Source: an uncultured Chloroflexia bacterium
GTDB lineage: Bacteria; Chloroflexota; Limnocylindria; Limnocylindrales; CSP1-4
Direction of reading: 5' to 3'
DNA length: 64,000 bases
Assembly: GCA_963806175.1 (NCBI GenBank)
Contig: CAWDXA010000011.1
Span: 199,318-263,317, forward strand
A program made the translations under genes and the position numbers. Positions 14,490 through 31,629 of the stretch are shown here, one piece after another. Numbering within the stretch: the stretch's first letter is position 1; each line of letters starts with the position of its first letter. The notes beneath the pieces are model-generated. The model had not been told where the DNA came from and made no database searches. It saw only the letters and a program-made list of their open reading frames with translations.

Positions 14490-14588
14490 GCACGGCGCCG
14501 AGGACACCGTCGCGCCGGGAAGCGTATCTTGACCCCTCGTCATCGAACCGCGACCGTCCCCGTGGCGGTCATCACGGAGAGTCGTCCC

Positions 14589-16130
14589 ATGACACAGGTC
14601 GCCGAACCCGGTGCCCTCGCAACGCCGTCTCCGGCTCCCGGCCGGTTGAGCCATTGGATCGGCGGCCAGCTCGTCGCCGGCACCTCGGGGCGCGATGGGC
14701 CGGTCTACGATCCGGCCACCGGCCGGCTCGCCAGGCACGTCGACTTCGCGTCCGACGCGGAGGTGGCGGCAGCCGTCGCGGCGGCCAGGTCCGCCTTTCC
14801 GGGCTGGCGCGCGACATCGCTGTCGAAGCGGACCGACGTCATGTTCAGGATCCGCAACCTGGTCGAGGCCAACCGCAAGGAGCTGGCCGCTCACCTGACG
14901 GCGGAGCACGGCAAGGTCCCCAGCGACGCGCTCGGCGAGATCGCGCGCGGCATCGAGAACCTCGAGTTCGCGTGCTCGATCCCCAGCCTGCTCAAGGGCG
15001 GCTTCACCGAGCAGGCGAGCACCGGCGTCGATGTCTACCAGATCCGCCAGCCGCTCGGCGTGGTGGCCGGGATCACACCGTTCAACTTTCCGGCGATGGT
15101 CCCGATGTGGATGTTCGCCACGGCCATCGCCACCGGCAACACGTTCATCCTCAAGCCGTCCGAGAAGGATCCGTCGGCCGCCAACTTCCTGGCCGAGCTG
15201 CTGGCCGAGGCGGGTGTCCCGGCCGGCGTCTTCAACGTCGTCCACGGCGACAAGGTCGCCGTGGACGCGATCCTGGCCCACCCGGGCATCGCCGCGGTCT
15301 CGTTCGTGGGCTCGACCCCGATCGCGCGCTACATCTACGAGACCGGGACGAAGGCCGGCAAGCGTGTCCAGGCGCTCGGTGGGGCCAAGAACCACATGAT
15401 CGTGCTGCCCGACGCCGACATCGACATGGCCGCCGACGCGGCGATCTCGGCCGGCTTCGGCTCGGCCGGCGAGCGCTGCATGGCGATCGCCACGGTCGTC
15501 GCCGTGGGTTCCGTGGCGGACCCGCTGGTCGAGGCGATCATGGCTCGCCTGCCGCGGGTCAAGGTAGGCCCGGGCAGCGACCCGTCGTCCGAGATGGGGC
15601 CGTTGGTCACCCGTCAGCACCGCGACAAGGTCGCGTCCTACCTCGACAGCAGCGCCGCCCAGGGCGCGACCGTGGTTGCCGATGGTCGGGATCACCCGCT
15701 CTTCAGGGAATCCGACGGGTTCTTCCTGGGGGTCTCGTTGATCGACGAGGTGACGCCGGCGATGGACGCCTACAAGGACGAGATCTTCGGCCCGGTCCTG
15801 AGCGTCATGCGGGTCGACACCTACGAACAGGCAGTCAAGCTCGTCAACGACAATCCGTACGGCAACGGGACCGCGATCTTCACCCGTGACGGGGGGGCGG
15901 CCCGCCAGTTCCAGTTCGAGGTCGACGCCGGGATGGTCGGCATCAACGTGCCGATCCCGGTGCCGGTCGCCTATTACAGCTTCGGGGGCTGGAAGAGCTC
16001 GCTGTTCGGCGATCTGCACATGTACGGCCCCGAGGGGATCCAGTTCTACACGCGGGCCAAGATCGTCACCTCGCGCTGGCCGGATCCCGGCACGAGCAGG
16101 ATCGACCTCGGGTTCCCGCGTACGAGATAG
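14589..16130 (+). CDS. mmsA: CoA-acylating (methyl)malonate-semialdehyde dehydrogenase
   Basis: GITPFNFPAM, KPSEKDP, FVGSTPIA, LGGAKNH, GSAGERCMA (catalytic Cys), EIFGPV, NVPIPVP, FGGWKSSLFGD. Confidence 0.93.
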   Translation: MTQVAEPGALATPSPAPGRLSHWIGGQLVAGTSGRDGPVYDPATGRLARHVDFASDAEVAAAVAAARSAFPGWRATSLSKRTDVMFRIRNLVEANRKELAAHLTAEHGKVPSDALGEIARGIENLEFACSIPSLLKGGFTEQASTGVDVYQIRQPLGVVAGITPFNFPAMVPMWMFATAIATGNTFILKPSEKDPSAANFLAELLAEAGVPAGVFNVVHGDKVAVDAILAHPGIAAVSFVGSTPIARYIYETGTKAGKRVQALGGAKNHMIVLPDADIDMAADAAISAGFGSAGERCMAIATVVAVGSVADPLVEAIMARLPRVKVGPGSDPSSEMGPLVTRQHRDKVASYLDSSAAQGATVVADGRDHPLFRESDGFFLGVSLIDEVTPAMDAYKDEIFGPVLSVMRVDTYEQAVKLVNDNPYGNGTAIFTRDGGAARQFQFEVDAGMVGINVPIPVPVAYYSFGGWKSSLFGDLHMYGPEGIQFYTRAKIVTSRWPDPGTSRIDLGFPRTR

Positions 16131-16595: not shown

Positions 16596-17039
16596 ATGAC
16601 CGAGTACGAACGGGCGACCACGCGCGAGACCCGTATCGTGGAACCCGCGACAACCGCCACCACGACGACCACCGACGAACCGATGACCAGGATACGGACG
16701 ACAGACCGGGCGTACATGCCGGCCGGCCCGGAAGGGCTGTCCGTCGTCGGGCGCTTCGTCGCCTTCATCTTCGGCGTCGTGCAGGCGCTGCTGATCCTTC
16801 GGCTGGTCCTGCTGGTCCTCGTGGCCAACCCCGGCAACGACGTGGTGGCGTTCATCCTGAGCGTCACCGGTCCGTTCGTGGATCCATTCCGCGGCATGTT
16901 CGCGCTCGATCGCGTCGGTGCCGCCCAGGGCTCCGTCCTCGACGTGGCCGCGCTGGTAGCCCTCGTGGGCTGGACGCTGATCGAGGCGCTGATCCTGGCC
17001 GCGCTGCGCATCTTCGCCCGCCGACCGTCCGAGATCTAG
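16596..17039 (+). CDS. YggT-family membrane protein with Thr-rich N-terminus
   Basis: SD AAGGAGG; LILRLVLLVLVANPGNDVVAFILSVTGPFVDPFRGMF is typical YggT. Confidence 0.8.
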   Translation: MTEYERATTRETRIVEPATTATTTTTDEPMTRIRTTDRAYMPAGPEGLSVVGRFVAFIFGVVQALLILRLVLLVLVANPGNDVVAFILSVTGPFVDPFRGMFALDRVGAAQGSVLDVAALVALVGWTLIEALILAALRIFARRPSEI

Positions 17040-18163
17040 CCCGGCTCGGCCGGCGCAGACCGGCCAGACCGGCGGCCCCGCCGGCTGACCGGGCGGCGTC
17101 GGCCGATCGCCACGATCGTGATGTCGTCGGCCGGCGCCATCCCCGCCTGGAACTCCGTGACCGCCGCCCGGATCGACTCGACGATCCCGGCGGCGGCGCC
17201 GTGTCCGTCTCCCGACGGGCGGCGCGCGGCCTCGATGGCCGCCAGCAGCCGGTCCTCCTCGAAGCGTTCCCCGCTCGTCGAGCGAGCGTCGGTCACGCCG
17301 TCCGTGTAGAAGAGCACGACGTCACCGCCCCCGAGCTCGACCTCGGCCTCGAACAGCCCGAGCGATGCGAACGCCCCGAGGAGCGGCCCTTCGACGTCGA
17401 CCGTCTGGACGGGGGATCCGTCGCCGGGAACGATCAGCGGCGGCTCGTGCCCCGCGTTGGCCAGCCGCAGCCGTCCGGTCGGCAGCGAGAGCGTCGCGCA
17501 CAGCGCCGTGATGAACAGGGACGACCGGCGCTCCTGGACGAGGATCTGGTTCGTACGCTCGAGCGCCTCAGCGGGGCCGCCGGTGTTGTCGATGGCGGCG
17601 TGGAGGAGTGGTCGCGAGAAGGCCATGAGGAGCGCCGCGGCGATGCCCTTGCCCGAGACGTCCGCGATCACGACACTCAGTGGGCGCCCGCGCCGGCGCA
17701 TCCGGAACAGGTCGAAGAAGTCGCCACCAACTTCGCGCGCGGCCTCGTAGTGGCTGGCCAGCTCGTAGCCCGGGACCTCCGGGGCGACCAGCGACACGAA
17801 GCTGCGCTGGAGCCGCCGGCCGTGGGCCAGCTCCTGCTCGATCCGGCGGGCGGCAACCACGTCGGCGATGCCGGTGCCGCCGACCGTGTGCGCGATCCCG
17901 ATCGCGATGGCGATCGATTCGACGCTGGCGGCGCCCAGCGCCGTTGCCGCCGAGTCGCCCCAGGCGAGGACCCGGCCGCCGGACAGGGGCCCGGCCACGA
18001 TCGGCCGGCTCAGCGCGTCCGGCGGAGGATCGTCGGGCGACGTCCCGCCGACCGGGACCCCGGCTGCATCGTGGATGGCGAGCGAGAGTGACGGCGCCAG
18101 GTCGCGAAACGGCGCCAGCATCGCCTCGACGCCCGGACTGCCGGGCGGCAACGGCTCGGACAC
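17036..18163 (-). CDS. PP2C/SpoIIE-family Ser phosphatase (RsbU-like) with short N-terminal sensor-like segment; start uncertain
   Basis: REVGGDFFD, IADVSGKG, NAGHEPP, YTDGVTDA, DDITIV metal-binding motifs. Confidence 0.88.
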   Translation of the reverse strand: MSEPLPPGSPGVEAMLAPFRDLAPSLSLAIHDAAGVPVGGTSPDDPPPDALSRPIVAGPLSGGRVLAWGDSAATALGAASVESIAIAIGIAHTVGGTGIADVVAARRIEQELAHGRRLQRSFVSLVAPEVPGYELASHYEAAREVGGDFFDLFRMRRRGRPLSVVIADVSGKGIAAALLMAFSRPLLHAAIDNTGGPAEALERTNQILVQERRSSLFITALCATLSLPTGRLRLANAGHEPPLIVPGDGSPVQTVDVEGPLLGAFASLGLFEAEVELGGGDVVLFYTDGVTDARSTSGERFEEDRLLAAIEAARRPSGDGHGAAAGIVESIRAAVTEFQAGMAPADDITIVAIGRRRPVSRRGRRSGRSAPAEPG

Positions 18164-18195
18164 GGCGACGAGCGCGGGACCGCGGGCCGGCCGGC

Positions 18196-18615
18196 TCAGA
18201 ACGCGGCGACCCCCGCCGCCCGGTCGGGGTGTGTGAGGAAGAGGCGATTGAGCCCGGTCCGCGACAGCACGCGCTCGACCGCCGGTTGCGCGCCGCACAG
18301 CTGGACCTCGGCCTGGGTCGAGCCCGCGGCCACGTCCTGACCGAGGGCGTGGAGGGCGCCCCATCCCGCATCGGGATCCGGTGGTGGCTCGCCGTGCATC
18401 AGGCGGACGATCGAGTGCAGGGCGACCAGGCCCGAGCTGGCCATGAATCGCAGGTTCGCCAGGTCGAGGAGCAGGTAGCGGGCACCCGCGTCGTACAGGC
18501 CCCGGACCTGGTCGATGAGCGCCCCGAAGTTGGACGCGTCGAGCTCGCCGTCGAGGGTCAGCACCGTGATCGGCACCCGTCCGGATGCCTGATCGACCGA
18601 CGTCTCCAGGGCCAT
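18196..18615 (-). CDS. STAS-domain anti-sigma-factor antagonist (RsbV/SpoIIAA-like)
   Basis: LDGELDASNF, LLLDLANLRFMASSGLVAL (phospho-acceptor Ser), VERVLSRTGL. Confidence 0.88.
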   Translation of the reverse strand: MALETSVDQASGRVPITVLTLDGELDASNFGALIDQVRGLYDAGARYLLLDLANLRFMASSGLVALHSIVRLMHGEPPPDPDAGWGALHALGQDVAAGSTQAEVQLCGAQPAVERVLSRTGLNRLFLTHPDRAAGVAAF

Positions 18616-19062
18616 CTAGCGATCCTCCTTCGTGCCCGGTTCCAGCCTTCGAACCAGGGTGAGTATGTTGCCGCCTCCGGGGCGCAGGCGATGGCTGATC
18701 TCGTCGACGCACAGGCGGGCGAGGTGGACCCCCATGCCGCCCGGCCGCCGCCGCTCGGGTGGGACGCTGAGGTCGGGCTCGGGCACCACCGTCGGATCAA
18801 AGGGCCGGGCGTCGTCCTCGATCGTCACGACCAGGCGGTCCCCCTCACGGGCGAGGCGGACCTCGACCCAGCCTGGCCGACCGGCATGCCCGTGGACGAT
18901 GGCGTTGGTGGCCGTCTCGTCCACGGCCTGGACGAGATCGTCGGCGAACGCCGCCTCGGCCCCGGCGGCCGTCGCCGCCGCCCGGATCATCTCGCGGACC
19001 TCGACCAGCCGGGCCACGTCCGACGGGATGCGGATCTTGCGGACCGTTGCCGCCGAGGTCAT
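18616..19062 (-). CDS. Anti-sigma-factor Ser kinase (RsbW/SpoIIAB-like HATPase_c)
   Basis: N box AVDETATNAIVHG, IEDDARPFDP, G2 box RPGGMGVHL. Confidence 0.88.
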   Translation of the reverse strand: MTSAATVRKIRIPSDVARLVEVREMIRAAATAAGAEAAFADDLVQAVDETATNAIVHGHAGRPGWVEVRLAREGDRLVVTIEDDARPFDPTVVPEPDLSVPPERRRPGGMGVHLARLCVDEISHRLRPGGGNILTLVRRLEPGTKEDR

Positions 19063-19066
19063 CGGG

Positions 19067-20464
19067 TCAGCCGAGCCGGGCGTGATCGGCGGGCGCGCGC
19101 CTGAGATAGCGGCCGTGGCCCACCCGCCCGGTGAATTGCCCGTCGCGGACGATCACCGAGCCGCGCGACATGACGATGTCGCTCGCCCCCTGGACGACCC
19201 GGCCCTCGTAGCACGAGTAGTCGACGTCCATGTGGTGCTGCGCAGCGGAGATGGTGCGCTTGCGGTTCGGGTCGTAGATGAGCAGGTCGGCGTCAGAGCC
19301 GACGGCGATCGCCCCCTTCTGCGGGTACAGGCCGAAGAGCTTCGCCGGCGCCGTGGACATGATCTCGACCCAGCGCTCCTTCGAGATCCGGCCGCCGACG
19401 ACGCCCCCGTCGTGAAGCAGGTCGACCCGGTCCTCGACGCCGGGCAGGCCGTTGGGGACCTTCCGGAAGTCGTCCCGACCGAGGTCCTTCTGGCCGTGGA
19501 AATCGAACGGGCAGTGATCGGTGGCGACCAGCTGCAGGTCGTCCTTGATGAGCCCGTTCCACAGCTCGTCCCAGTGGTCCCTGGGACGCAGCGGCGGAGA
19601 GCAGACGAACTTGGCGCCTTCGAACCCGTTGCCCAGGTCGTCGAGCGACAGGAACAGGTACTGCGGGCACGTCTCGGCAAAGGCGCGCGTCCCGCGATCG
19701 CGCGCCGCGCGGACCTCCGCCAGGGCTTCCTTCGACGAGAGGTGGACGATATAGACGGGCGCCCCGGCCGCCTCGGCCAGCCGGATGACCCGGTTGGTCG
19801 CCTCGCCCTCGAACACGGCATAACGGGCCACGCCGTGGTAGTACGGGTCGGTCTTGCCGGACTCGGCAAGCTGCCCGGCGACCACGTCGATCGCCATCCC
19901 GTTCTCGGCGTGCATCATGATCAGCCCGCCGTTCCGGGCCGTCTGCTGCATCGCCCGGAAGATCGCCCCGTCGTCGCTCAGGAAGACGCCCGGGTAGGCG
20001 GTGAACAGCTTGAAGTCGGGCACGCCCTCGGCGACCAGCTGGTCCATCTCGGCCAACGTCGCGTCGTTGACGTCGCTCATGATCATGTGGAAGCCGTAGT
20101 CGGCAACGGTGTGGCCCTCGGCCTTGGCCAGCCACGTGTCGAGCCCTTCGCGCAGGGCATGGCCCTTGACCTGGACGGCGAAGTCCAGGATGGTCGTCGT
20201 CCCGCCGAATGCCGCCGCCCGCGAGCCGGTCTCGAAGGTGTCCTTGGCGAACGTGCCGCCGAATGGCAGCTCCATGTGGGTGTGCGCGTCGATCCCGCCC
20301 GGGACCACGTACCGGCCGGTCGCGTCGATCGTCTCGTCCGCCGTCACCGAGGCACCGGCCGGGTCGCGCCCGATCTGGGCGATGGTCTCGCCGTCGATCA
20401 GGACGTCGGCCTGGTACGAGCCATCGGCCGTGACGACGGTGCCGTTGGTGATGAGCGTGCGCAT
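19067..20464 (-). CDS. hydA: Dihydropyrimidinase
   Basis: PGGIDAHTH (HxH), FKLFTAY (carbamylated Lys), MHAENG, YIVHLS, ETCPQYL, FVCSPPLR, ATDHCPF, PNGLPGVE. Confidence 0.95.
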   Translation of the reverse strand: MRTLITNGTVVTADGSYQADVLIDGETIAQIGRDPAGASVTADETIDATGRYVVPGGIDAHTHMELPFGGTFAKDTFETGSRAAAFGGTTTILDFAVQVKGHALREGLDTWLAKAEGHTVADYGFHMIMSDVNDATLAEMDQLVAEGVPDFKLFTAYPGVFLSDDGAIFRAMQQTARNGGLIMMHAENGMAIDVVAGQLAESGKTDPYYHGVARYAVFEGEATNRVIRLAEAAGAPVYIVHLSSKEALAEVRAARDRGTRAFAETCPQYLFLSLDDLGNGFEGAKFVCSPPLRPRDHWDELWNGLIKDDLQLVATDHCPFDFHGQKDLGRDDFRKVPNGLPGVEDRVDLLHDGGVVGGRISKERWVEIMSTAPAKLFGLYPQKGAIAVGSDADLLIYDPNRKRTISAAQHHMDVDYSCYEGRVVQGASDIVMSRGSVIVRDGQFTGRVGHGRYLRRAPADHARLG

Positions 20465-20546: not shown

Positions 20547-21554
20547 TCAGGCCGATGGGGCGACGTCGCGCACGATCGGGATGACGTCCCGGCCGTACGA
20601 CTCGAGCTGCGATTCCTCGTCGCCGTTCATCAGGTACACGTTGAACTGGTCGACGCCGGCGGCCGCCAGCTCGCGGAGCTTGGCAACGTGCTCGTCGGCC
20701 GGCCCAAGGACGCAGAACCGGTCGGTCACGTCGTCGCCCACGAACGCGGCGTTGGAGGAGCCGACTTCGGCGTGGTGGAGGTAGTCGTAACCCGATCGGT
20801 CCCGGATGTAGCCGGTCAGGTTGGCCGGCAGCGCCTCGCGCGGGTACTTGTTGACCAGGTCGACCACGTGGTTCGAGACGAGCGCCGGGAACCAGCGCGT
20901 CCGCTCCCGCCCGATGTCGCGCGGCCCGATGTACGCCGCGGCTGCGGCCTGCACCTTGATCGTCGACGGATCGCGACCGGCGGCGCGAGCCGAGTCGCGC
21001 ACCTGCCCCGCGAACCAGCGGATGAGATCCGGATCGGCGAGCTGCAGGATGATCCCGTCGGCCACCCGCCCGGTCATCGCCAGCGCCATCGGCCCGTAGC
21101 CGGCGACCCAGATGGGGAGCGTCCAGGACCCGGTCCAGGGCAGGCGGAGCTCGGTGCCTTCGTAGACCGTGGTCCGCCCTTCGACGAGGTCCCGGATGAC
21201 CCGGATGGCGTCCTCGAGGGTGCGCATCGTGGTCGGCGGCTTGCCGAGGACGCGGCGAGCCGAATCGCCGCGTCCGATGCCGAGATCCATCCGGCCGCCG
21301 GACAGCTCGTCGAGGACCGCCAGCGCGGACGCCGTGACGGTGGGCTCGCGGGTCGCCGGGTTCGTCACGCAGGTGCCGAGGCGAAGACGGGTGGTCGCCT
21401 GGGCCATCATCGTGAGCAGGACGTACGGCTCGCGCCACAGCACGTGCGAGTCGAACAGCCAGCCGTAGTCGAAGCCGGCGGCCTCGGCCTGCCGGGTCAG
21501 GGCCAGGGTCTGGTCGAGCGTGTGGTCGGGCTTGAGCGTGAAGCCGAACTGCAT
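20547..21554 (-). CDS. LLM-class putative F420-dependent oxidoreductase, CPS_4043 (TIGR03842)-like
   Basis: Mer-like LLM motifs FDSHVLWREP, VTNPATR, GIGRGDSARR, RWFPALVSNHVVDLV; sits between hydA and the nitrilase, a typical context for this family. Confidence 0.82.
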   Translation of the reverse strand: MQFGFTLKPDHTLDQTLALTRQAEAAGFDYGWLFDSHVLWREPYVLLTMMAQATTRLRLGTCVTNPATREPTVTASALAVLDELSGGRMDLGIGRGDSARRVLGKPPTTMRTLEDAIRVIRDLVEGRTTVYEGTELRLPWTGSWTLPIWVAGYGPMALAMTGRVADGIILQLADPDLIRWFAGQVRDSARAAGRDPSTIKVQAAAAAYIGPRDIGRERTRWFPALVSNHVVDLVNKYPREALPANLTGYIRDRSGYDYLHHAEVGSSNAAFVGDDVTDRFCVLGPADEHVAKLRELAAAGVDQFNVYLMNGDEESQLESYGRDVIPIVRDVAPSA

Positions 21555-21635: not shown

Positions 21636-22487
21636 CTAGGGGCGGGTAAGGTCCCCGTACGCATCGGGTCGACGGTCGCGGAAGAACTGCCAGGTATTGC
21701 GGACCTCGATGATCCGATCGAGGTCGAGATCGCGCACGATCAACTCCTCGTCGTGTGCGGAGCCCACGTCGCCGACGAACTGGCCGCGCGGGTCGACGAA
21801 GTAGCTCTGGCCGTAGAAGTCGTCGTCGCCGAACTCGGACTCGACGCCGACCCGGTTGATCGTCCCGACGTAGTAGCCGTTGGCCAGCGCGTGGCTGACC
21901 TGCTCGACACGCCACAGGTACTCGGACAGCCCACGCGACGTGGCGCTCGGGATCAGGACGATCTCGGCGCCGTTGAGCCCGAGCGCCCGGGCCCCCTCGG
22001 GGAAATGGCGGTCGTAGCAGATGTACACGCCGACCTTGCCGACGGCCGTCTCGAACACCGGGTAGCCCAGGTTGCCGGGCCGGAAGTAGAACTTCTCCCA
22101 GAACCCCTTGACGTGCGGGATGTGCGTCTTGCGGTACTTCCCCAGGTACCGGCCGTCGGCGTCGATGACCGCAGCCGTGTTGTAGTAGATGCCGGAGGCC
22201 TTCTCGTCCTCTTCGTACATCGGGGCGACGACGACCATCCCGGTCTGCTTGGCGAGGTCCTGCATCCGCTTCGTGGTGGGTCCGTCGGGGATCAGCTCGG
22301 TGTAGCTGTAGTACCTGGCGTCCTGGACCTGGCAAAAGTACGGCCCGTAGAACAGCTCCTGGAAGAGGATGAACTGGGCGCCCTGCTTCGCCGCCTCGTG
22401 GGCGCGCTCCTCGTGCTTCTGGATCATCGTTTCCTTGTCGCCGGTCCAGCTGGCCTGGACGAGCGCGCCGCGGACGGTTCGGGGCAT
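21636..22487 (-). CDS. Nitrilase-family amidohydrolase, likely beta-ureidopropionase (N-carbamoyl-beta-alanine amidohydrolase)
   Basis: E-K-C triad motifs FQELF, YRKTHIP, ICYDRHFPE; EKFYFRPGN; operon context with hydA. Confidence 0.88.
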   Translation of the reverse strand: MPRTVRGALVQASWTGDKETMIQKHEERAHEAAKQGAQFILFQELFYGPYFCQVQDARYYSYTELIPDGPTTKRMQDLAKQTGMVVVAPMYEEDEKASGIYYNTAAVIDADGRYLGKYRKTHIPHVKGFWEKFYFRPGNLGYPVFETAVGKVGVYICYDRHFPEGARALGLNGAEIVLIPSATSRGLSEYLWRVEQVSHALANGYYVGTINRVGVESEFGDDDFYGQSYFVDPRGQFVGDVGSAHDEELIVRDLDLDRIIEVRNTWQFFRDRRPDAYGDLTRP

Positions 22488-22563
22488 CGGCAGGGCACCT
22501 CGCACGCTGGTTCGAACTGGGAGTCGAAGCGGGGAGAGGGTACACCGCGCGAGGCGGTCCCGA

Positions 22564-22953
22564 TCAGTCGGGCAGGGCCTCCGTCCGCCGCCGGTTGTAC
22601 CACTCGGTGAACTCGCGGCAGCGGCCCTCGGCATCGAACCGGCAGACGAAGATGTTGGCGAACTCGCGGTCGACCGCCGACTGGTCGTCGGTCAGGTATC
22701 GGGTCCGGCCGTGGGCGACGCAGACGTCGCGATCCACCGCCAGGACCTCGTAGTCGGCCTCCCATGATCCGGGCGCGTCGGGGTCCGTGAGCCACGCGGC
22801 GACGACCGCGGGACGGCCGACGACCGCTTCGCCGAAGGGATCGAAGGCGTAGCGAACGTCCAGGCTGAAGAGGTCGCCGATGGCGGTCGGGTCGGCCAGC
22901 CGCCAGGCGTCGACGTAGCGGTCGAGCCAGGCCTTGAAGGCGGCGTGGTCCAT
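22564..22953 (-). CDS. SnoaL/NTF2-like protein
   Basis: AWLDRYVDAWR...LFSLDVRY...GRCREFTEWY. Confidence 0.8.
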   Translation of the reverse strand: MDHAAFKAWLDRYVDAWRLADPTAIGDLFSLDVRYAFDPFGEAVVGRPAVVAAWLTDPDAPGSWEADYEVLAVDRDVCVAHGRTRYLTDDQSAVDREFANIFVCRFDAEGRCREFTEWYNRRRTEALPD

Positions 22954-23045: not shown

Positions 23046-24470
23046 GTGACCGAGCGAGCGAGGCTCCTGTCCCGTTCCATGGAACTCGCGACCGCGTACC
23101 TGGACTCGCTCGACGAGCGGCGGGTCGGTGGGCCGGTCGACCTGGCGTCCCTGCGGACAGCCCTCGGCGGACCGCTGCCCGACGGACCGACCGATCCACT
23201 GACCGTGGTGGAAGCGCTGGCCGCCGCCGCGGACCCGGGGCTGGTGGCGAGCGCCGGCCCACGCTACTTCGGGTTCGTGGTCGGCGGCAGCCTGCCGGCC
23301 GCCCTCGGCGCCGACTGGCTGGCCTCGGCCTGGGACCAGAACGCGGGCCTGTATGTGCTCTCGCCGGCGGCCGCCGTGGCTGAGGAGGTCGCCGGCGGGT
23401 GGTTGGTCGAGCTCCTCGGGCTGCCCAGCGGGACGAGCGTCGGGTTCGTCACCGGCGCCACCATGGCCAACTTCACCGCCCTGGCCGCCGCCCGCCACGG
23501 CGTGCTGGCGCGAGTCGGCTGGGATGTCGAGCGGCAGGGTCTCCAGGGCGCCCCGCCGGTCACCGTGGTGACCCACGGCGGGACCCATGTGACGGTCTAC
23601 GCCTCGCTCCAGATGCTCGGGCTGGGACGCGAGGGGGCGCAGGTTCGGAAGATCGCCGCGGACGGCCAGGGTCGGATGCGCCCGGATGCCTTGCGCGAGG
23701 CTCTCGCCGGGATCGACGGACCGACCATCGTTTGCCTCCAGGCCGGCAACGTGAACACGGGCGCGTTCGATCCGTTCGCCGAGTTGATCCCGATCGCCCA
23801 CGAGCACGGCGCGTGGGTCCACATCGACGGCGCGTTCGGGATCTGGGCGGCGGCCGTGCCGTCCCTGCGCGACCGGATGCGCGGCCACGACGCAGCCGAT
23901 TCCTGGTCGACCGACGCCCACAAGTGGCTGAACGTCCCGTACGACTCCGGGCTCGTGTTCGTGCGCGACGCGGCCCCGCATCACGCCGCGATGGCGCTCG
24001 GCGCCGAGTACTACATCGAGACGGCGGGGGCCGAACGAGACCCCTACAACTGGACGCCCGAATCGTCCCGGCGGGCGCGGGGTTTCGCGGTCCTGGCGGC
24101 GCTCCGCTCGCTCGGGCGGTCTGGTCTGGTGGACCTCATCGAGCGCGACTGCGCCCACGCCCGGCGGATGGCCGAGCGGCTCGCGGCCGGCCCGCGCGTG
24201 TCGATCCTCAACGACGTCGTCCTGAACCAGGTGGTCGTCCGGTTCGACGGCCCCGCCGGCGACGGCGACGGCTCGGCCGGTGACGCGCGGACCCGGGCCG
24301 TGATCGACGCCGTCCAGCGCGACGGGACATGCTGGCTGGGCGGAACGACGTGGGCGGGCCGGGCGGCGATGCGCGTCTCCGTGTCGGGTTGGCAGACGAC
24401 GGCCGACGACATCGAAAGGTCCGCCGACGCGATCCTGCGCTGTCTCGACGGGGTCGATCACGCGGGATAG
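23046..24470 (+). CDS. Group II PLP-dependent decarboxylase (DDC/GAD family)
   Basis: PRYFGFV, HIDGAFG, STDAHKWLNVPYDSG (PLP lysine), SRRARG. Confidence 0.88.
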   Translation: MTERARLLSRSMELATAYLDSLDERRVGGPVDLASLRTALGGPLPDGPTDPLTVVEALAAAADPGLVASAGPRYFGFVVGGSLPAALGADWLASAWDQNAGLYVLSPAAAVAEEVAGGWLVELLGLPSGTSVGFVTGATMANFTALAAARHGVLARVGWDVERQGLQGAPPVTVVTHGGTHVTVYASLQMLGLGREGAQVRKIAADGQGRMRPDALREALAGIDGPTIVCLQAGNVNTGAFDPFAELIPIAHEHGAWVHIDGAFGIWAAAVPSLRDRMRGHDAADSWSTDAHKWLNVPYDSGLVFVRDAAPHHAAMALGAEYYIETAGAERDPYNWTPESSRRARGFAVLAALRSLGRSGLVDLIERDCAHARRMAERLAAGPRVSILNDVVLNQVVVRFDGPAGDGDGSAGDARTRAVIDAVQRDGTCWLGGTTWAGRAAMRVSVSGWQTTADDIERSADAILRCLDGVDHAG

Positions 24471-24594: not shown

Positions 24595-25933
24595 ATGAGC
24601 ATCACGACCGCTCCAGGCTCGATGACGAGCGAGGAGATCGCCAGGCTGTCGCGGGAGCATACCTTCTTCTCCTGGTCGGTCCAGGGAGCCGTCGACCCGA
24701 TCTCGATCGACCGGGCGGAGGGCGTCTACCTGTACACGCCCGAGGGCCAGCGGATCCTCGATTTCAACAGCCAGCTGATGTCGGTCAACATCGGCCACGG
24801 CGACCGGCGGGTGATCGATGCCATCACCGCCCAGGCACTCAAGCTGCAGTACGTCCAGCCGGCGTTCGCGACCGAGATCCGCGCCCGGCTCGGCGCGAAG
24901 CTGGCCGAGATCCTGCCGGGCGACATGGACAAGGTGTTCTTCACGCTGGGTGGCGCGGAGGCGGTCGAGAACGCGATCAAGCTGGCCCGCCATTACACCG
25001 GGCGGTACAAGGTCCTCTCGCGCTACCGCTCCTATCACGGGGCGACGATGGGCGCGATGACCCTGACCGGCGACCCGCGCCGCTGGCCCAATGAGCCCGG
25101 GCTGGTCGGCGTCGTCCGCTATCCCGACACGCATCGATGGGGGGAGGCGGAGCCGCGGCCGGTTGGCCGAGAGCCTGCAGGGCCTCGAGGACGTCATCCG
25201 CTACGAGGGCCCGGCCACCATCGCCGCGATCTTCCTCGAGACGATCGTCGGCACCAACGGGATCCTGATCCCGCCGGACGGCTACATCCAGGGCGTGCGC
25301 GAGATCTGCGACCGGCACGGCATCCTGATGGTCGCCGACGAGGTGATGGCCGGCTTCGGGCGAACCGGGAAGTGGTTCGCGATCGACCACTGGGGCGTCA
25401 CGCCCGACCTGATGACGATGGCCAAGGGCCTGACCAGCTCGTACCTGCCGCTCGGCGCGGTCGCCATGACCCGTCGCGTGGCCGAGAAGTTCGACGGCAT
25501 GTACTACTCGGGCGGGCTGACCTACAGCAGCCACCCGGTCAGCCTGGCCGCCTCGCTGGCGACGATCGGCGTCTACGAGGAGGACGGCCTGATCGACAAC
25601 GCCGCCCGTCTCGACCCGGTCATGCGCGAGCACCATCGGCGCCTGGCGGCCAAGCACCCGAGCGTCGGCGCCACGCGCAACCTGGGCCTGTTCGGGATCC
25701 TCGACCTGGTCCGCCGCCGCGATCCGTGGACGCCGCTGACCCCGTTCAACGGCACGTCGGACGAGATGAAGGCGATCGGCAGGTTCTTCCGCGACAACGG
25801 CCTGTACACGATGATCGCCAACAACTCGATCCACACGAACCCGCCGCTGTGCATCACCGACGAGCAACTGGCCGAGGGCTTCGACATCCTCGACCGGGCC
25901 CTCGACATCGCCGATCAGGCGGTGACCGGATAG
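24595..25933 (+). CDS. Class III aminotransferase (probable beta-alanine/omega-amino acid transaminase); split by one extra G near 25165
   Basis: N-half LDFNSQLMSVNIGH, GAEAVENAIK, SYHGAT; C-half ADEVMAGFGRTG, MAKGLTS, GLTYSSHP. Removing one base at GTTGGCC joins the frames as ...EPRPVAESLQGLED... Confidence 0.88.
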
Positions 25934-25936
25934 CCG

Positions 25937-26890
25937 ATGACCGCCGGCCCGATCGACACCCCGTCCACGTCGACCGCGACCGAGCCGGCGGTCGAGGCCG
26001 CCCCTGGCGGCGGCGTCCATTCGCGGCGCCGGCGCGTCGCGACGCTGGCGGGGTTCGGGGTGCTCGTCCTCCTGCTGTGGGAGGTCGTCAAGGTCCTCGG
26101 CGGGGTCCCGTGGCGGTTCAAGGACGTCCTCGGCACCGGCCTGTCCATCAACTATTCGCCGCCGTTCCGCTTCCCGTTCGCCTCCGACCTCAACCTGCCG
26201 CACTGGTTCAGCATCCTCGGGGCACTCGCGGCCCCCGTGCAGCGCAGCGCACAGCAGTCGCTCGGGGAATTCCTGGTCGGAGCCGCCTTCTACACGTGGC
26301 GTGAAGCGGCCATCGGCTTTGCGGTCGGTGCGCTGCTCGGACTGGTGCTGGCGACGCTGTTCGTCCACTCGCGGCTCGCGGAGCGGGCATTCGTGCCCTA
26401 CGTGATCGCCAGCCAGACCATCCCGATCGTCGCGCTGGCGCCGATGATCGTGTATGCGTTCGGGCCCAACGTCACCTCCGTCGTGGTCATCGCGACGTAC
26501 CTGACCTTCTTCCCGGTCACGATCGCCATGATCCGCGGTCTCCGGGCCCCGGATCCACGGGCGCTCGAGCTGATGCGTTCGTACGCCGCGGGACGCTGGG
26601 CGGTCTATCGGAAGGTGCGCCTTCCCGCATCCCTGCCGTACCTGTTCACGGCCTTGAAGATCGCGGCGACCGCCTCCATCGTGGGCGCGATCATCGGCGA
26701 AGGGCCGGGCGGGATCCCCGACGGGCTGGGCCGGGCGATCATCAACTTCAACCAGCAGTACATCAGCGGCCCAGAGAAGCTGTGGGCGGCGATCCTCGCG
26801 TCCTCGCTACTGGGCATCTCGTTCTTCGTCGTGATCCGCGCGGCCGAGCTGGTGGCCCTCCGCGGACGGCCCGGAGCGGCGCAGGGATGA
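25937..26890 (+). CDS. ABC transporter permease, NitT/TauT family
   Basis: SQTIPIVALAP; EAA-like LELMRSYAAGRWAVYRKVRLPASLPYLF; GAIIGE. Confidence 0.9.
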   Translation: MTAGPIDTPSTSTATEPAVEAAPGGGVHSRRRRVATLAGFGVLVLLLWEVVKVLGGVPWRFKDVLGTGLSINYSPPFRFPFASDLNLPHWFSILGALAAPVQRSAQQSLGEFLVGAAFYTWREAAIGFAVGALLGLVLATLFVHSRLAERAFVPYVIASQTIPIVALAPMIVYAFGPNVTSVVVIATYLTFFPVTIAMIRGLRAPDPRALELMRSYAAGRWAVYRKVRLPASLPYLFTALKIAATASIVGAIIGEGPGGIPDGLGRAIINFNQQYISGPEKLWAAILASSLLGISFFVVIRAAELVALRGRPGAAQG

Positions 26891-27810
26891 GCACCATGGA
26901 TGCCGCTCGATCCACGCCGGGCTCGGCGCCGACCGACCAGGCTCCGCCCGTCGTCCGCATCGTCGCCGTCGACAAGACCTTCGTGAGCGATCGCGCGCGG
27001 GTGACCACGGCCCTCCAGGGGATCGACCTCGAGATCCGGCGTGGCGAGTTCGTGTCGCTGATCGGGCCGTCGGGCTGCGGCAAGTCCACCTTGCTCCGGC
27101 TGATCGGCGACCTGGTGGTGCCGACCGCCGGCCGGGTGACGATCAACGACAAGCCGGCCGAGCGTGCCCGTCGCGATCGTGACTACGGCATCGTTTTCCA
27201 GGCACCCGTCCTGTTCGACTGGCGCTCGGTCGAGGACAACGTCAAGCTGCCGCTCGAGCTGATGGGCTACGACGGCCCGCGCCGCACGGCGCGGGCCAGG
27301 GAGATGCTCGATCTCGTCGAGCTCGGAGACTTCCTCCACCACCATCCGTACCAGCTGTCGGGCGGCATGCAGCAGCGGGTGGCGATTGCCCGCGCGCTCG
27401 CCTTCGAGCCGTCGATCCTGCTGATGGACGAGCCGTTCGGCGCGCTCGACGAGATGACCCGCGAGCGGATGAACCAGGAGGTCCAGCGGATCTGGGAGCA
27501 GACCGGGATCACGGTCGTGTTCGTCACCCATTCGATCCCGGAGGCGGTCTTCCTGTCCTCGCGCGTCGTGGTCATGAGCGCCCGTCCGGGCCGGATCACC
27601 GACGTCATCGACATCGACCTGGCGCGGCCGCGCGGCGTCGAGACGCGCGAGCAGCGCCGCTACTTCGAGCTGGTGACTGCCGTCCGCGAGGCGCTCCGGC
27701 GGGGCGGGGCGGAGGTCGCCCTCGATTCCGACGATCCGGCCGGGGACCGGGCGGCGGCCGCCGCCGGTGGCTCCGTCGACCGGGCGGCGGCCGAGGGAGG
27801 CATCGGGTGA
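26887..27810 (+). CDS. ABC transporter ATP-binding protein, NitT/TauT family
   Basis: Walker [10 protein letters not shown], signature LSGGMQQR, Walker B LLMDEPFGALD. Confidence 0.93.
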   Translation: MSTMDAARSTPGSAPTDQAPPVVRIVAVDKTFVSDRARVTTALQGIDLEIRRGEFVSLIGPSGCGKSTLLRLIGDLVVPTAGRVTINDKPAERARRDRDYGIVFQAPVLFDWRSVEDNVKLPLELMGYDGPRRTARAREMLDLVELGDFLHHHPYQLSGGMQQRVAIARALAFEPSILLMDEPFGALDEMTRERMNQEVQRIWEQTGITVVFVTHSIPEAVFLSSRVVVMSARPGRITDVIDIDLARPRGVETREQRRYFELVTAVREALRRGGAEVALDSDDPAGDRAAAAAGGSVDRAAAEGGIG

Positions 27811-28658
27811 CGGCGGCGGTCGCCGGCCGCCCCGGACGCGCGGGCGGGCCGACGGGGCTCGCGAGTCGATCGGCGCAACGGATCGCCTACTACCTGCCGG
27901 CGATCGTCGTGTTCGTCGCCGCGATCGGCGCCTGGGAGCTGGCCGTCCGCAACATCGACCTGCGCGGCCTCCCGCTGCCGTCGCCCAGCGCGATCGGGAG
28001 GGCGCTCGTCGAGAACTGGTCGAACGGCCGCTGGCCGCTAGGCAAGGCCGCTGCCGCGACGCTGTTCGAGGCGGTCGGCGGGCTCGCGATCGGAACGGCG
28101 CTCGGGGTCGTCAACGCGCTCCTCACGGCCCGCTTCGCGACGGCGCGCGAGGTGCTCCTGCCGATCGCCGTCGGCGCCAGCGCGGTCCCGATCATCGCCT
28201 TCGCACCGCTCATGAACAACTGGTTCGGGGTGCTCAACCCGCTGTCCAAGATGATGATCGTGGCGGTGCTCGTCTTCTTCCCGGTGGCCGTCAACGTGAC
28301 CCGCGGCCTGACCCAGGTCGAGCCCTCCGCGCTCGAGCTGCTGCGCTCGTACGCCGCGTCCGAATGGACGGTCCTGCGGGTGCTGCGCCTGCCGAACGCC
28401 CTGCCGTACTTCTTTACGGCGCTCAAGATCGGGACGACGCTCAGCCTCATCGGGGCGATCATCGGCGAGTACTTCGGCGGCACCAGCGACGTGCTCGGCC
28501 GGGTCGTGGTCCAGAGCGCCAGCGCGCTGCGCTTCGACGTCAGCTGGGCGGCGATCGTGCTCGCGGCGATCGCCGGGATCCTGCTCTACCTCGTGACCGT
28601 GGCCGTCGAGCGCGCGGTCATCCCGTGGCACGCGTCAGTGCGCAGCCTGGAGCCGTAG
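27807..28658 (+). CDS. ABC transporter permease, NitT/TauT family
   Basis: VPIIAFAPL, LELLRSYAASEW...LRLPNALPYFF, GAIIGEYFG. Confidence 0.9.
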   Translation: MTAAVAGRPGRAGGPTGLASRSAQRIAYYLPAIVVFVAAIGAWELAVRNIDLRGLPLPSPSAIGRALVENWSNGRWPLGKAAAATLFEAVGGLAIGTALGVVNALLTARFATAREVLLPIAVGASAVPIIAFAPLMNNWFGVLNPLSKMMIVAVLVFFPVAVNVTRGLTQVEPSALELLRSYAASEWTVLRVLRLPNALPYFFTALKIGTTLSLIGAIIGEYFGGTSDVLGRVVVQSASALRFDVSWAAIVLAAIAGILLYLVTVAVERAVIPWHASVRSLEP

Positions 28659-28750
28659 GAGGACCTTCGCCCGGACGAGCGGCAGTGGGCGTGCCGAGCC
28701 ACCCAGCCCCCTGGTCAGCGATGTTGGCCATCTTGAACGAGGAGGAGAGG

Positions 28751-29932
28751 ATGACGAACACCCGCCGGTTCCTGGCGCTGGCCGCGTCGGCCAGCTTCCT
28801 GTTCGCCGCCTGCAGCAGCGGCGGCGCGACCACCGCGCCGTCGGCGGCCCCGAGCGAGGCGGCCCCGAGCGAGGCCGCATCGAGCGCGCCCGAGAGCGCC
28901 GCCCCGTCCCAGGTCGCAGCCCCGGCCGAGGTCCGGCTCCAGCTCCAGTGGGCGCCGCAGGCCCAGTTCGCGGGCTACTTCGCCGCGGTCGAGCAGGGCT
29001 ACTACGACGCCGCCGGGATCAAGCTGACGATCGTGCCCGGCGGCCCGGACGTCATTCCGCAGGCCGCGGGCTCGGCCGCCGACGGTCCCGAGTTCACGAT
29101 CAGCTGGGTGCCCAAGGTGCTCGAGGCGCGGATCGGCACCCCGGCGTCGGACCTGGTCGACATCGCCCAGGTCTTCCAGCGCTCGGGCACGCTGTCCGTG
29201 TCGTGGAAGAGCTCGAACATCACCAAGCCGGCCGATTTCAAGGGCAAGAAGATCGGCGTCTGGGACTTCGGCAACGAGTTCGAGGTCACGGCCGGGGCCC
29301 TCAAGGCCGGGCTGACCCAGGGTACCGACTACGAGAAGGTCATCCAGCCGTTCGACATGACGCTCCTGCTGTCGAAGCAGATCGACGTGGCCGAGGCGAT
29401 GATCTACAACGAGTACGCCCAGCTCCTCGAGGCCAAGGACCCGGAGACCGGGCAGCTCGTCCAGCCGACCGCGCTCAACGTCATCAACTGGAACGACGAG
29501 GGCACGGCGATGCTCCAGGACGCGATCTACGCTCGCGCCTCGTGGCTCGCACAGCCGGGCAACGAGGACGTGGCAGTCCGCTTCCTGAAGGCCTCGTTCC
29601 AGGGCTGGATCTACTGCCGGGCCAATCCGGCGGACTGCGTCCAGTACACGCTCAAGAACGGCTCCACGCTCGGCGCCGGGCACCAGGCCTGGCAGATGAA
29701 CGAGGTCAACGCCCTGATCTGGCCGTCGCCGAACGGGATCGGGATCATGGATCCGGCGCTCTGGCAGCAGACCGTCGACGTGTCCGTGGGCGCCGGGATC
29801 ATCAAGGAGGCGCCGCCGGCCGACGCCTACCGGACCGACCTCGCCCAGAAGGCGCTCGCCGGGATCACCGACGACACGAAGGGCACCGACTTCCAGAAGG
29901 GGGTCGTGGAGGTCACCGAAGGCGGCAACTGA
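28751..29932 (+). CDS. ABC substrate-binding lipoprotein, NMT1/THI5-like (pyrimidine-type)
   Basis: SD GGAGGAG; lipobox-like LFAAC; Ala/Pro/Ser linker; LQLQWAPQAQFAGYFAA, AQVFQRSG, AMIYNE. Confidence 0.88.
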   Translation: MTNTRRFLALAASASFLFAACSSGGATTAPSAAPSEAAPSEAASSAPESAAPSQVAAPAEVRLQLQWAPQAQFAGYFAAVEQGYYDAAGIKLTIVPGGPDVIPQAAGSAADGPEFTISWVPKVLEARIGTPASDLVDIAQVFQRSGTLSVSWKSSNITKPADFKGKKIGVWDFGNEFEVTAGALKAGLTQGTDYEKVIQPFDMTLLLSKQIDVAEAMIYNEYAQLLEAKDPETGQLVQPTALNVINWNDEGTAMLQDAIYARASWLAQPGNEDVAVRFLKASFQGWIYCRANPADCVQYTLKNGSTLGAGHQAWQMNEVNALIWPSPNGIGIMDPALWQQTVDVSVGAGIIKEAPPADAYRTDLAQKALAGITDDTKGTDFQKGVVEVTEGGN

Positions 29933-30040: not shown

Positions 30041-31627
30041 GTGGCCGTGTCGCCGCCTCCTTCCGGGATCCACGATCAGAGCGTGAACGACCATCTGGAG
30101 GTCCTGCGCGCCATGCGCGCCAAGGCGCTCGAGGGCGGTGGCCCGGACCGGATCGCCCAGCAGCATGCCCGTGGCAAGCTGACGGCCCGCGAGCGCCTCG
30201 CGCTCCTGCTCGACGACGGCTCGTTCCAGGAAATGGGAGCGCTCGCCACCCACGACGAGACCGGCTTCGGGCTGGCCGATCAGCGCTATCCGGGCGACGG
30301 CGTGGTCGCCGGGTTCGGCAAGGTCAGCGGCCGGCGAGTGGCCGCATTTGCCCAGGACTTCACGGTCATCGGCGGCTCGTTCTCGCGGGTCCAGTCGCAC
30401 AAGATCAGCCGGATCCAGGATCTCGCCCTGGAGAGCGGCGTCCCGATCATCGGCCTCAACGACTCGGGTGGGGCGAGGATCCAGGAGGGCGTCGCGAGCC
30501 TGGCCGCCTACGGCGAGGTCTTCGTGCGCAACGTCCTGTGCTCGGGGGTCATCCCGCAGATCTCGGTCATCCTCGGGCCATGCGCCGGCGGGGCCGTCTA
30601 CTCGCCGGCCCTGACGGACTTCGTGATCATGGCCAGGGGCACCAGCTCGATGTTCCTGACCGGGCCGGATGTCGTCGAAGCCGTGACCGGCGAGGTCGTC
30701 TCGATCGAGGAGCTCGGCGGTTCGGACGTGCACGAGGCGCGCAGCGGCGTCGCCCATCTCGTCGCCGACAACGAGCTCGGGGCGATCGAGCTCGTCAAGC
30801 TCCTGCTCGGCTACCTGCCGCAGAACAACAACGAGGACCCGCCGCAGCTCGTGCCCTACGACCCGGCCGACCGGATGGCCGACGACCTGAACGCGCTCAT
30901 CCCGGATGACGAAGCCGAGACGTACGACGTGCGCGACATCCTGGGCCACGTCTTCGATCGCGACAGCTTCCTCGAGGTGCATGCCGCCTACGCGCCCAAC
31001 GCGGTCACCGGGTTCGCCCGGCTGGACGGCTTCGCGGTCGGGATCGTCGCGAACCAGCCGGCGGTCATGGCCGGCGTGCTCGACATCGACGCCAGCGACA
31101 AGATCGCCCGCTTCATCCGGATCTGCGACGTCTACAACCTCCCGGTCGTCACCTTCGTGGACTGCCCCGGCTTCCTGCCCGGCGTCGACCAGGAGTACCA
31201 GGGCGTCATCCGCCACGGTGCCAAGATCATCTACGCCTACTGCGAGGCGACCGTTCCCAAGATCTCGATCGTGACCCGTCGCGCGATGGGCGGTGCCTAC
31301 GTGGCGATGAGCTCGCGCCAGATGCGGACCGACATCGCGTTCGCGTGGCCCGGCGCCCAGATCGCGGTCATGGGAGCCGAGGCGGCCGTCCGGATCCTGT
31401 ACGCCCGCGAGGTGCGCGCCGCCGACGACCCGGCCGTGGCCACGGCGGCATACGTCCAGGCCTACCGCGATGCGTTCTTCAACCCCTACCGCGCGGCCGA
31501 TGTCGGCCAGATCGACGAGGTCATCGAGCCGCGGGAGACCCGTCCGCGCCTGATCCGGGCCCTCGAGCTGCTCCGCACCAAGGTCCAGCAGAACCCGCCC
31601 AAGAAGCACGGCCTGTTCCCGGCCTGA
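30041..31627 (+). CDS. Acyl-CoA carboxyltransferase (methylmalonyl-CoA decarboxylase alpha / PccB type); alternative start GTG 30083
   Basis: RGKLTARER, DSGGARIQEG, CAGGAVYSPALTD, DCPGFLPG, IIRHGAK, AYVAMS, IEPRETR, PKKHG. Confidence 0.92.
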   Translation: MAVSPPPSGIHDQSVNDHLEVLRAMRAKALEGGGPDRIAQQHARGKLTARERLALLLDDGSFQEMGALATHDETGFGLADQRYPGDGVVAGFGKVSGRRVAAFAQDFTVIGGSFSRVQSHKISRIQDLALESGVPIIGLNDSGGARIQEGVASLAAYGEVFVRNVLCSGVIPQISVILGPCAGGAVYSPALTDFVIMARGTSSMFLTGPDVVEAVTGEVVSIEELGGSDVHEARSGVAHLVADNELGAIELVKLLLGYLPQNNNEDPPQLVPYDPADRMADDLNALIPDDEAETYDVRDILGHVFDRDSFLEVHAAYAPNAVTGFARLDGFAVGIVANQPAVMAGVLDIDASDKIARFIRICDVYNLPVVTFVDCPGFLPGVDQEYQGVIRHGAKIIYAYCEATVPKISIVTRRAMGGAYVAMSSRQMRTDIAFAWPGAQIAVMGAEAAVRILYAREVRAADDPAVATAAYVQAYRDAFFNPYRAADVGQIDEVIEPRETRPRLIRALELLRTKVQQNPPKKHGLFPA

Positions 31628-31629
31628 CG

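Follow-up and report, generated by a model that had tools for sequence, protein, structure and literature searches.

A luciferase-like F420-type oxidoreductase as candidate first enzyme of reductive pyrimidine catabolism in Chloroflexota, Actinomycetota and Rhodobacterales

A 64,000-nucleotide stretch of a Chloroflexota genome, referred to below as the window (C11:199318-263317 of a 3.29-Mb, 14-contig assembly with 71% GC, 76% completeness and 4% contamination), carries a gene for a luciferase-like oxidoreductase of the coenzyme F420 type (LLM) among genes for the reductive degradation of pyrimidines. We consider it likely that LLM is an F420H2-dependent uracil/thymine reductase, non-homologous to PydA and PreTA, which fills the first step of this pathway. 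The original prediction, made from the DNA letters alone, had read the gene as a possible alternative entry enzyme, and genome comparison supports that reading through family membership, co-occurrence with hydA, synteny in three phyla and links to F420 genes, the activity itself being predicted. As the rest of the pathway is present, PreA is absent and the synteny is kept, LLM is the protein that most likely performs step 1. The nearest relatives of the window are metagenome-assembled genomes of the Chloroflexota class Limnocylindria. The gene in question is the following:

20547-21554, minus strand: LLM, luciferase-like F420-type oxidoreductase of the TIGR03842 family, 335 aa, ATG start, third-position GC 0.91

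The open reading frame of LLM is genuine and intact, as are those of the neighboring hydA and CN-hydrolase genes (third-position GC 0.88-0.92 for the three). The assignment to the CPS_4043 group in the original prediction held when the profile was run: LLM scores 438.5 bits against NCBIfam TIGR03842 ('F420_CPS_4043'), over a cut-off of 295.45, and aligns to profile positions 1-328 of 329, its sole Pfam domain being Bac_luciferase (PF00296, 213.8 bits). The next-best families are the Mer models NF002619 (156.1 bits, cut-off 276) and TIGR03555 (143.8 bits, cut-off 348.7), and the nearest solved structures are those of Mer from several methanogens (E ~1e-35, ~29% identity). A search with the AlphaFold2 model of LLM (pLDDT 82.7, pTM 0.85) gave the same picture, with Foldseek ranking Mer structures at the top (TM 0.78-0.83), followed by FGD2, Adf and FGD1 and then by enzymes that use flavin mononucleotide (FMN). 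According to this model, LLM is a single-domain luciferase-like (beta/alpha)8 TIM barrel. It belongs to the Mer-like 'reductase' branch, where Mascotti et al. placed Mer and its relatives (PMC6279831).

Mer is thus the closest characterized homolog of LLM, with the same fold and a place in the F420H2-consuming branch (PMC11094777, PMC6279831). LLM keeps from Mer the GxVTNP segment, which holds the non-prolyl cis-peptide of Mer, as well as Asp96 (Asp97 in LLM) and the carboxamide at Mer position 178 (Gln171 in LLM). In contrast, the catalytic Glu6 at the end of strand beta-1 in jMer is Thr6 in LLM, and is T, V or C throughout the TIGR03842 family and never Glu; in Mer, the Glu6 to Gln variant retains 0.4% of kcat (PMC11094777). 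The two also differ in gene context, which is pyrimidine catabolism for LLM and one-carbon (C1) metabolism for Mer, and a segment around residues 243-261 is highly conserved in TIGR03842 and has no Mer counterpart. An alignment of 131 family sequences from three phyla showed that R95, S98, R101, W140, Y153, W221, F222, N228, H229, R253, Y256, D257, Y258, H261 and Y307 are near-invariant, unlike in Mer. The window protein has all 15 of these residues plus D97 and Q171, and the set is near-invariant in 80 sequences from Limnocylindria, 40 from actinobacteria and two from alphaproteobacteria. Several of the conserved residues lie in the strand-7 loop, just past the residue aligned to the pterin-binding Phe of Mer, and others in the family-specific segment. 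This polar and aromatic set would fit a small polar heterocycle as the substrate.

Other identities for the protein were considered and rejected. That LLM is itself a Mer is ruled out by the sub-cut-off scores against the Mer models and by the loss of Glu6. A RutA or another FMN monooxygenase is likewise rejected: RutA shares the superfamily fold and also acts on uracil, but it depends on FMN and O2 and cleaves the ring, it was not among the 25 best of the 31 families matched, all FMN-type luciferase-like models among those 25 score at most 55 bits, and the gene context is also against it, no other Rut-type gene having been recognized among the cluster genes of the window. As for the catalytic acid, Cys62 is located beneath the predicted F420 site and is a conserved residue within Limnocylindria; as the position is M, C, F or L elsewhere in the family, it was discarded.

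A second TIGR03842-like copy was found outside the window at C3:555627-556262. It is truncated at the N-terminus (234 bits, profile positions 116-329) and has lost invariant residues (N228 is G, and the YDY motif is gone), so that it probably represents a gene remnant.

The association of LLM with pyrimidine catabolism is most evident in Actinomycetota, where we scored gene presence by family cut-offs in a sample of 301 genomes. TIGR03842 is present in 63 of them, nearly always in single copy, and hydA in 90, including all 63 TIGR03842 carriers (63/0/27/211 for both, LLM only, hydA only and neither; Fisher p = 1e-43 with genomes treated as independent and no correction for phylogeny). PreA exceeds its cut-off in a single genome of the 301, a non-carrier, and thus in 0/63 carriers. 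When about 20 kb around LLM was read in 40 carriers, together with two further loci, hydA was found within 10 kb of LLM in 39 of the 42 loci and 12-50 kb away on the same contig in the remaining three. The usual companions of the LLM-hydA pair are a CN-hydrolase, an aminotransferase, mmsA and an importer of the same NMT1 type as in the window, arranged in at least four gene orders. Twenty of the 27 genomes with hydA and without LLM were inspected; their hydA is more distant (38-52% identity), and no pyrimidine-pathway gene was found beside it in any of the 20. Taken together, the co-occurrence and these bare surroundings of hydA indicate that pyrimidine-type clusters and LLM go one to one in Actinomycetota. 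A 45%-identical representative, the one with the highest TIGR03842 score, pointed to Acidimicrobiia, where the order is CN-hydrolase, hydA, aldehyde dehydrogenase and LLM, with a class-III aminotransferase nearby. The complete 4.9-Mb genome of Aquihabitans sp. G128, which has an LLM cluster of this Acidimicrobiia type, was searched for PreA and none was found.

The 80 best related loci all belong to close relatives of the window within Limnocylindria, with LLM proteins 77-93% identical to that of the window. Among those with enough sequence, LLM has the CN-hydrolase on its upstream side in 68 of 71 loci (at a distance of up to 900 bp in 59 cases) and hydA on its downstream side in 56 of 60 (up to 900 bp away in 23 cases). 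In 31 relatives, LLM and hydA are separated by an insert of 1.5-3 kb. The possibility of a conserved extra gene at this position was discarded, as the inserts that were read, by eye, vary between genomes; they include a PAS kinase, a molybdopterin oxidoreductase and a membrane protein that looks UbiA-like.

Across a sample of 301 Chloroflexota genomes, TIGR03842 is present in 42, namely 24 of the 33 Limnocylindria and members of seven other families. At the 18 loci read from other classes, hydA is beside LLM in 16, the other two being short stretches that hold an ATP-binding cassette (ABC) importer, or a CN-hydrolase and an NCS1 symporter. Examples of the gene orders are NCS1 symporter, LLM, CN-hydrolase, hydA, mmsA and aminotransferase in one case, and ABC importer, LLM, hydA and M20 Zn-hydrolase in another; the NCS1 symporter sometimes takes the place of the ABC importer, and the M20 Zn-hydrolase that of the CN-hydrolase. 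Over Chloroflexota, Actinomycetota and Rhodobacterales the transporter, the carbamoylase and the gene order vary, and only hydA and LLM are constant. The original prediction that LLM would accompany hydA across genomes is therefore borne out, both by the 63 of 63 actinobacterial carriers and by pyrimidine-type clusters in three phyla. PreA exceeds its cut-off in seven of the 301 Chloroflexota. Two LLM-negative genomes have it within a similar cluster (hydA-PreA-NCS1-CN-hydrolase-aminotransferase-mmsA, and hydA-preA-preT-NCS1...mmsA), as expected if PreA and LLM are alternatives.

The use of coenzyme F420 by LLM, which its nearest relatives would suggest, is also predicted from the company that the gene keeps. 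A plasmid search found TIGR03842 members in Rhodobacterales. On a plasmid of Leisingera caerulea, LLM is the last gene of the series cofG-cofH-cofD-cofC-cofE-npdG-LLM, which is divergent from pntB-pntA, a class-III aminotransferase, a Zn-dependent (M20) hydrolase, hydA and an NCS1 nucleobase symporter; Paracoccus alcaliphilus has an operon cofGHDCE-npdG-LLM followed by an ABC importer. Since npdG carries the annotation of an NADPH-dependent F420 reductase, an operon whose products synthesize and reduce F420 and whose last gene is LLM fits an F420H2-consuming reductase. Two genomes of another Chloroflexota family have npdG-cofE-cofC-cofD between hydA and LLM, without cofG or cofH. The genome of the window itself encodes cofD (303 bits), cofC and cofE in a row at C11:321528-323936, outside the window, with a second F420-type luciferase-like gene (TIGR03560, 277 bits) beside them, and a weak npdG-like gene on C5 (101 bits, under the cut-off).

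The usual first enzyme of the pathway was looked for in the whole assembly. No PreA was found in the window, in agreement with the original prediction, which had also listed PreT, for which no family model was searched. Only two genes of the assembly have a DHO_dh domain, one for a class-1 PyrD and one for a 'DHOD-like' protein of the PRK07565 type; they lie on C11 at a great distance from the cluster, and their PreA scores of 123.7 and 74.4 bits are well short of the cut-off of 335. LLM itself has no detectable DHO_dh, iron-sulfur (Fe-S) or FAD/NAD(P)H domain. Because the assembly is 76% complete, the absence of PreA from this one genome is weak evidence on its own; PreA was likewise missing from 18 of 20 close relatives, these being Limnocylindria genomes that hold related loci (a closed 3.1-Mb chromosome is among the 20), and from two genomes of the same genus in the phylum sample, which are 93-94% complete.

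The PRK07565 DHOD-like protein (417 bits) lies at C11:409518-412126 beside an open reading frame (~1260 aa) in which 4Fe-4S was matched, and the pair is conserved in relatives.

Around LLM, the window holds the following genes:

19067-20464, minus strand: hydA / PydB dihydropyrimidinase (step 2), 465 aa, 82 bp downstream of LLM; TIGR02033 570.4 bits, cut-off 393.25
21636-22634, minus strand: CN-hydrolase, probable beta-ureidopropionase / PydC (step 3), 81 bp upstream of LLM; PF00795 221.7 bits
22564-22953, minus strand: SnoaL-like small protein, PF12680 35 bits, kept at the same place in most Limnocylindria clusters
23046-24470, plus strand: group-II decarboxylase dependent on pyridoxal phosphate (PLP), PF00282 132 bits, present in many relatives' clusters
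24595-25933, plus strand: class-III aminotransferase (PydD candidate), Aminotran_3 in two frames
25937-29932, plus strand: ABC importer with BPD_transp_1, ABC_tran and NMT1 domains, made up of a permease (25937-26890), an ATPase (~26950-27810), a second permease (27807-28658) and a lipoprotein NMT1/THI5-like binding protein (28751-29932)
14529-16130, plus strand: mmsA, CoA-acylating (methyl)malonate-semialdehyde dehydrogenase (last step), TIGR01722 712.9 bits, cut-off 448.5

Family matches confirm each of the genes that had been named around LLM (hydA, a nitrilase, a class-III aminotransferase, mmsA and an NMT1/THI5-type transporter), as well as its position between hydA and the nitrilase. The closest solved chains to the hydA product are D-hydantoinase/dihydropyrimidinase (496 bits). 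The CN-hydrolase resembles N-carbamoylputrescine amidohydrolase (206 bits) and the Drosophila and human beta-ureidopropionases (167-178 bits) among solved structures, whereas its top NCBIfam match, aguB, gives 265 bits against a cut-off of 410 and the protein stays below every equivalog cut-off; it is probably a beta-ureidopropionase of the PydC type. Since its domain starts at residue 57, the true start is probably downstream of the ATG at 22634. The PLP decarboxylase is distantly like diaminobutyrate decarboxylases or aspartate decarboxylases of the PanP type, with NCBIfam scores all far under their cut-offs, and might make or use beta-alanine. The two frames of the aminotransferase gene correspond to Aminotran_3 profile positions 10-140 (N-terminal part) and 177-403 (C-terminal part); the enzyme is probably a beta-alanine/beta-aminoisobutyrate transaminase. 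The importer probably takes up pyrimidines. In many related clusters, mmsA adjoins hydA or LLM.

The pathway that we propose from these genes would begin with the import of uracil or thymine by the NMT1-type ABC system. LLM would then transfer a hydride from C5 of its bound F420H2 to C6 of the base, and a conserved acid, for which His229, Tyr256, Asp257 and His261 are candidates, would protonate C5 to yield 5,6-dihydrouracil or 5,6-dihydrothymine. HydA would open the ring, the CN-hydrolase would free beta-alanine or beta-aminoisobutyrate with NH3 and CO2, the class-III aminotransferase would make the semialdehyde, and MmsA would convert it to acetyl- or propionyl-CoA. The redox potential of F420 is about -340 mV, slightly more reducing than that of NAD(P)H, so that the reduction of uracil or thymine would be feasible. 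The chemistry proposed for LLM parallels that of PydA at its FMN site, with neither Fe-S clusters nor an additional flavin being involved.

The dihydropyrimidine dehydrogenases (DPDs) described so far, whether dependent on NADPH, NADH or ferredoxin, all belong to one PyrD flavin/Fe-S family (PMC7332683). The NADPH-dependent PydA/DPD, the NADH-dependent PreT-PreA and the ferredoxin-dependent clostridial PydAc catalyze the reaction proposed here for LLM, from uracil/thymine to the 5,6-dihydro form, and occupy the same place in the same type of cluster, with hydA, a ureidopropionase, an aminotransferase, a semialdehyde dehydrogenase and a nucleobase importer (PMC7332683). They are nonetheless unrelated to LLM in sequence and fold. 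The PyrD type combines an FMN-binding DHO_dh domain with [4Fe-4S] ferredoxin domains and passes electrons along a flavin/Fe-S chain, whereas direct hydride transfer from F420H2 is proposed for LLM. A precedent for the chemistry is SSGG-03002/NpsU, putatively an F420/FMN oxidoreductase, which produces dihydro-mureidomycins and napsamycins; genetics and NMR showed that it is needed for reduction of the uracil-ring C5=C6 bond in mureidomycins, although in-vitro activity was not obtained (PMC10714638). As judged by its published description, it shares with LLM the bond that is reduced and a predicted F420 or FMN site, but its substrate is a uridyl-peptide antibiotic and not the free base. A second parallel comes from the uric-acid pathway of Chloroflexota, for which a luciferase-family F420 reductase has been proposed, from gene neighborhoods only, in place of a DPD-like reductase (PMC12507026). 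By description, that variant also lacks the DPD-like ring reductase (YgfK or UacX) and has a PF00296 protein in the cluster instead, but its pathway is that of SsnA, YgeW, YgeY and YgeX and its ring is purine-derived. The window cluster was rejected as a uricolytic one of this SsnA/YgeW/YgeX kind, as none of those genes was recognized in it and its downstream enzymes fit beta-alanine.

Nothing on an F420-dependent dihydropyrimidine dehydrogenase, or on the function of TIGR03842, turned up in a literature search that left most subscription journals outside its reach, so that an earlier publication is possible. Papers on the nitrogen regulon of M. smegmatis place dihydropyrimidinase genes under GlnR control and do not mention LLM. 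The present analysis adds the counts given here and two findings described below, namely that sister genera combine the LLM cluster with a fused PreTA and that FO synthase is lacking nearly class-wide.

Several observations weigh against LLM as a uracil/thymine reductase. Neither enzyme assays nor knockouts nor expression data for TIGR03842 members were found in the literature, and the characterized enzymes of the Mer-like branch that are cited here (Mer and a ketoreductase) act on other bond types. The genome is 76% complete with 4% contamination, and two of the 20 close relatives have PreA-like matches, one over the cut-off and one at 296 bits, so that the absence of PreA stands for this assembly and for 18 of the relatives and not for these two. 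A PreT-PreA fusion of some 880-970 aa, with PreA as its C-terminal half and a eukaryote-like, single-chain DPD architecture, accompanies LLM in four of the 42 Chloroflexota carriers, all of them sister genera within the family of the window; it is part of a second cluster, hydA2-preTA-mmsA2, in one genome and stands alone in the other three, as does the PreTA of E. coli, which is outside any Pyd pathway (PMC7332683). With four genomes having both, LLM and PreTA are largely complementary and not mutually exclusive: the expected exclusion holds in Actinomycetota (0/63 carriers with PreA), and in its strict form it was rejected for the family of the window. The aminotransferase gene is frameshifted as assembled, with one extra base near 25162 (GGTTGG in the window and G-TGG in four relatives); the shift is either genuine or a product of the assembly.

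The cofactor supply poses the main weakness of the F420 claim for the window organism. An FO synthase was not found in the assembly, either with the cofH model or by tblastn with CofG and CofH of Leisingera, and cofH was not found in 20/20 relatives, 32/33 Limnocylindria and 40/42 Chloroflexota LLM carriers, although cofD is over its cut-off in 14 of the 20 relatives. The check for F420 biosynthesis genes thus had a divided outcome, cofC, cofD and cofE being present and FO synthase absent here and nearly class-wide. The supply of F420 here would accordingly hinge on the uptake of FO, probably from outside the cell; these bacteria either take up FO made by others or use another route. We did not find the class-wide lack of FO synthase discussed in a review of F420 (PMC8498797).

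Guilt by association cannot separate uracil from a related ring, and an unlikely but coherent alternative is that LLM reduces another heterocycle (a substituted pyrimidine, an alkylidene-hydantoin or another cyclic ureide) whose product is opened by HydA, in a cluster that does not primarily serve uracil/thymine. The double naming of the closest HydA chains as D-hydantoinase and dihydropyrimidinase would agree with this, as would the position of the CN-hydrolase under every equivalog cut-off, the SnoaL-like and PLP-decarboxylase genes in the cluster, and the fused PreTA that four sister genera have in addition to the LLM cluster, in one case together with a separate hydA and mmsA, which could mean that the two have different substrates. 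However, an omega-aminotransferase and a CoA-acylating semialdehyde dehydrogenase suit beta-alanine/beta-aminoisobutyrate, some clusters have an NCS1 nucleobase symporter, PreA fills the same type of cluster in LLM-negative Chloroflexota, and none of the 63 actinobacterial carriers has PreA. Another assignment, which we regard as quite improbable, would make LLM an F420-dependent malonate/methylmalonate semialdehyde reductase similar to PydE or RutE and leave the reduction of the ring to another enzyme. Some Pyd clusters do carry the malonic semialdehyde reductase PydE (PMC7332683), a ketoreductase belongs to the Mer-like branch (PMC6279831), and no mmsA was seen within the 25 kb read at the Leisingera cluster; on the other hand, mmsA and LLM share a cluster in many genomes, where such a function would be redundant, the most constant neighbor of LLM is hydA and not the aminotransferase or mmsA, and no candidate for step 1 would be left in the 63 actinobacterial carriers or in the majority of the Limnocylindria that were checked.

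We find it very improbable that step 1 is performed by a PreTA encoded in the missing 24% of the assembly, or by the PRK07565 DHOD-like protein with a ferredoxin partner, LLM being accessory and possibly FMN-using. The 76% completeness of the assembly leaves room for this, and the fused PreTA of the sister genera, the conserved DHOD-like protein beside a large Fe-S protein (C11:409.5-412 kb) and the missing FO synthase are in its favor, but the two same-genus genomes of 93-94% completeness and the complete 4.9-Mb actinobacterial genome with the cluster have no PreA, and 190 kb separate the DHOD-like gene from the cluster, no locus read having shown it beside pyrimidine genes. The embedding of cofCDE and npdG in LLM clusters, or their fusion to them, and the higher rank of F420 enzymes over FMN enzymes in both sequence and fold argue further against it. 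Finally, the cluster could be decaying or idle in the window organism, with LLM having no current function, an explanation to which we give hardly any credence. It would draw on the extra base in the aminotransferase gene, the lack of any cofG or cofH and the truncated, degenerate second LLM copy; against it, the single-base indel is as likely an assembly error (the few, long contigs suggest that the assembly may come from long reads), LLM, hydA and the CN-hydrolase gene all have uninterrupted frames with 0.88-0.92 GC at third positions, and LLM is 77-93% identical to the proteins of 80 relatives and keeps every family-invariant residue.

If LLM is indeed the uracil/thymine reductase, it would be a clean non-orthologous replacement in a textbook pathway and would fill step 1 of pyrimidine catabolism in about one-fifth of the sampled Actinomycetota and one-seventh of the sampled Chloroflexota. 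A 2021 review noted that no F420-dependent enzyme had been studied in Proteobacteria or Chloroflexi and asked why the cofactor is made there (PMC8498797), and the function proposed for LLM would give F420 a concrete physiological role in these phyla. More tentatively, and with somewhat less than even confidence, we put forward that TIGR03842 represents a third dihydropyrimidine dehydrogenase class, unrelated to PydA/PreTA, devoid of Fe-S clusters and working by direct hydride transfer from F420H2, and that pyrimidine catabolism is among the main physiological uses of F420 beyond methanogens and mycobacteria. This would account for the cofGHDCE-npdG-LLM cassette of Rhodobacterales, as well as for the presence of cofC, cofD, cofE and an NADPH:F420 reductase without FO synthase in Limnocylindria and other Chloroflexota, where the deazaflavin (FO) would be scavenged from neighbors. 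That FO synthase is lacking across the class raises the question of whether abundant soil and freshwater bacteria depend on the deazaflavin of others. In practical terms, LLM could serve as a simple, oxygen-tolerant, single-subunit reductase for the production of dihydropyrimidines and beta-amino acids.

Two further groups of genes flank the cluster. Directly after the ABC importer, at 30041-33673 on the plus strand, are a carboxyltransferase (Carboxyl_trans, 608 bits) and an OadB-type beta subunit of a Na+-dependent decarboxylase, which may handle methylmalonyl- or malonyl-CoA derived from the end products of the pathway. Directly after hydA, all on the minus strand, are genes for an RsbW-like kinase (18616-19062), a STAS protein (18196-18615) and a PP2C/SpoIIE phosphatase (17036-18195), a trio that is found again behind hydA in some relatives and not in all.

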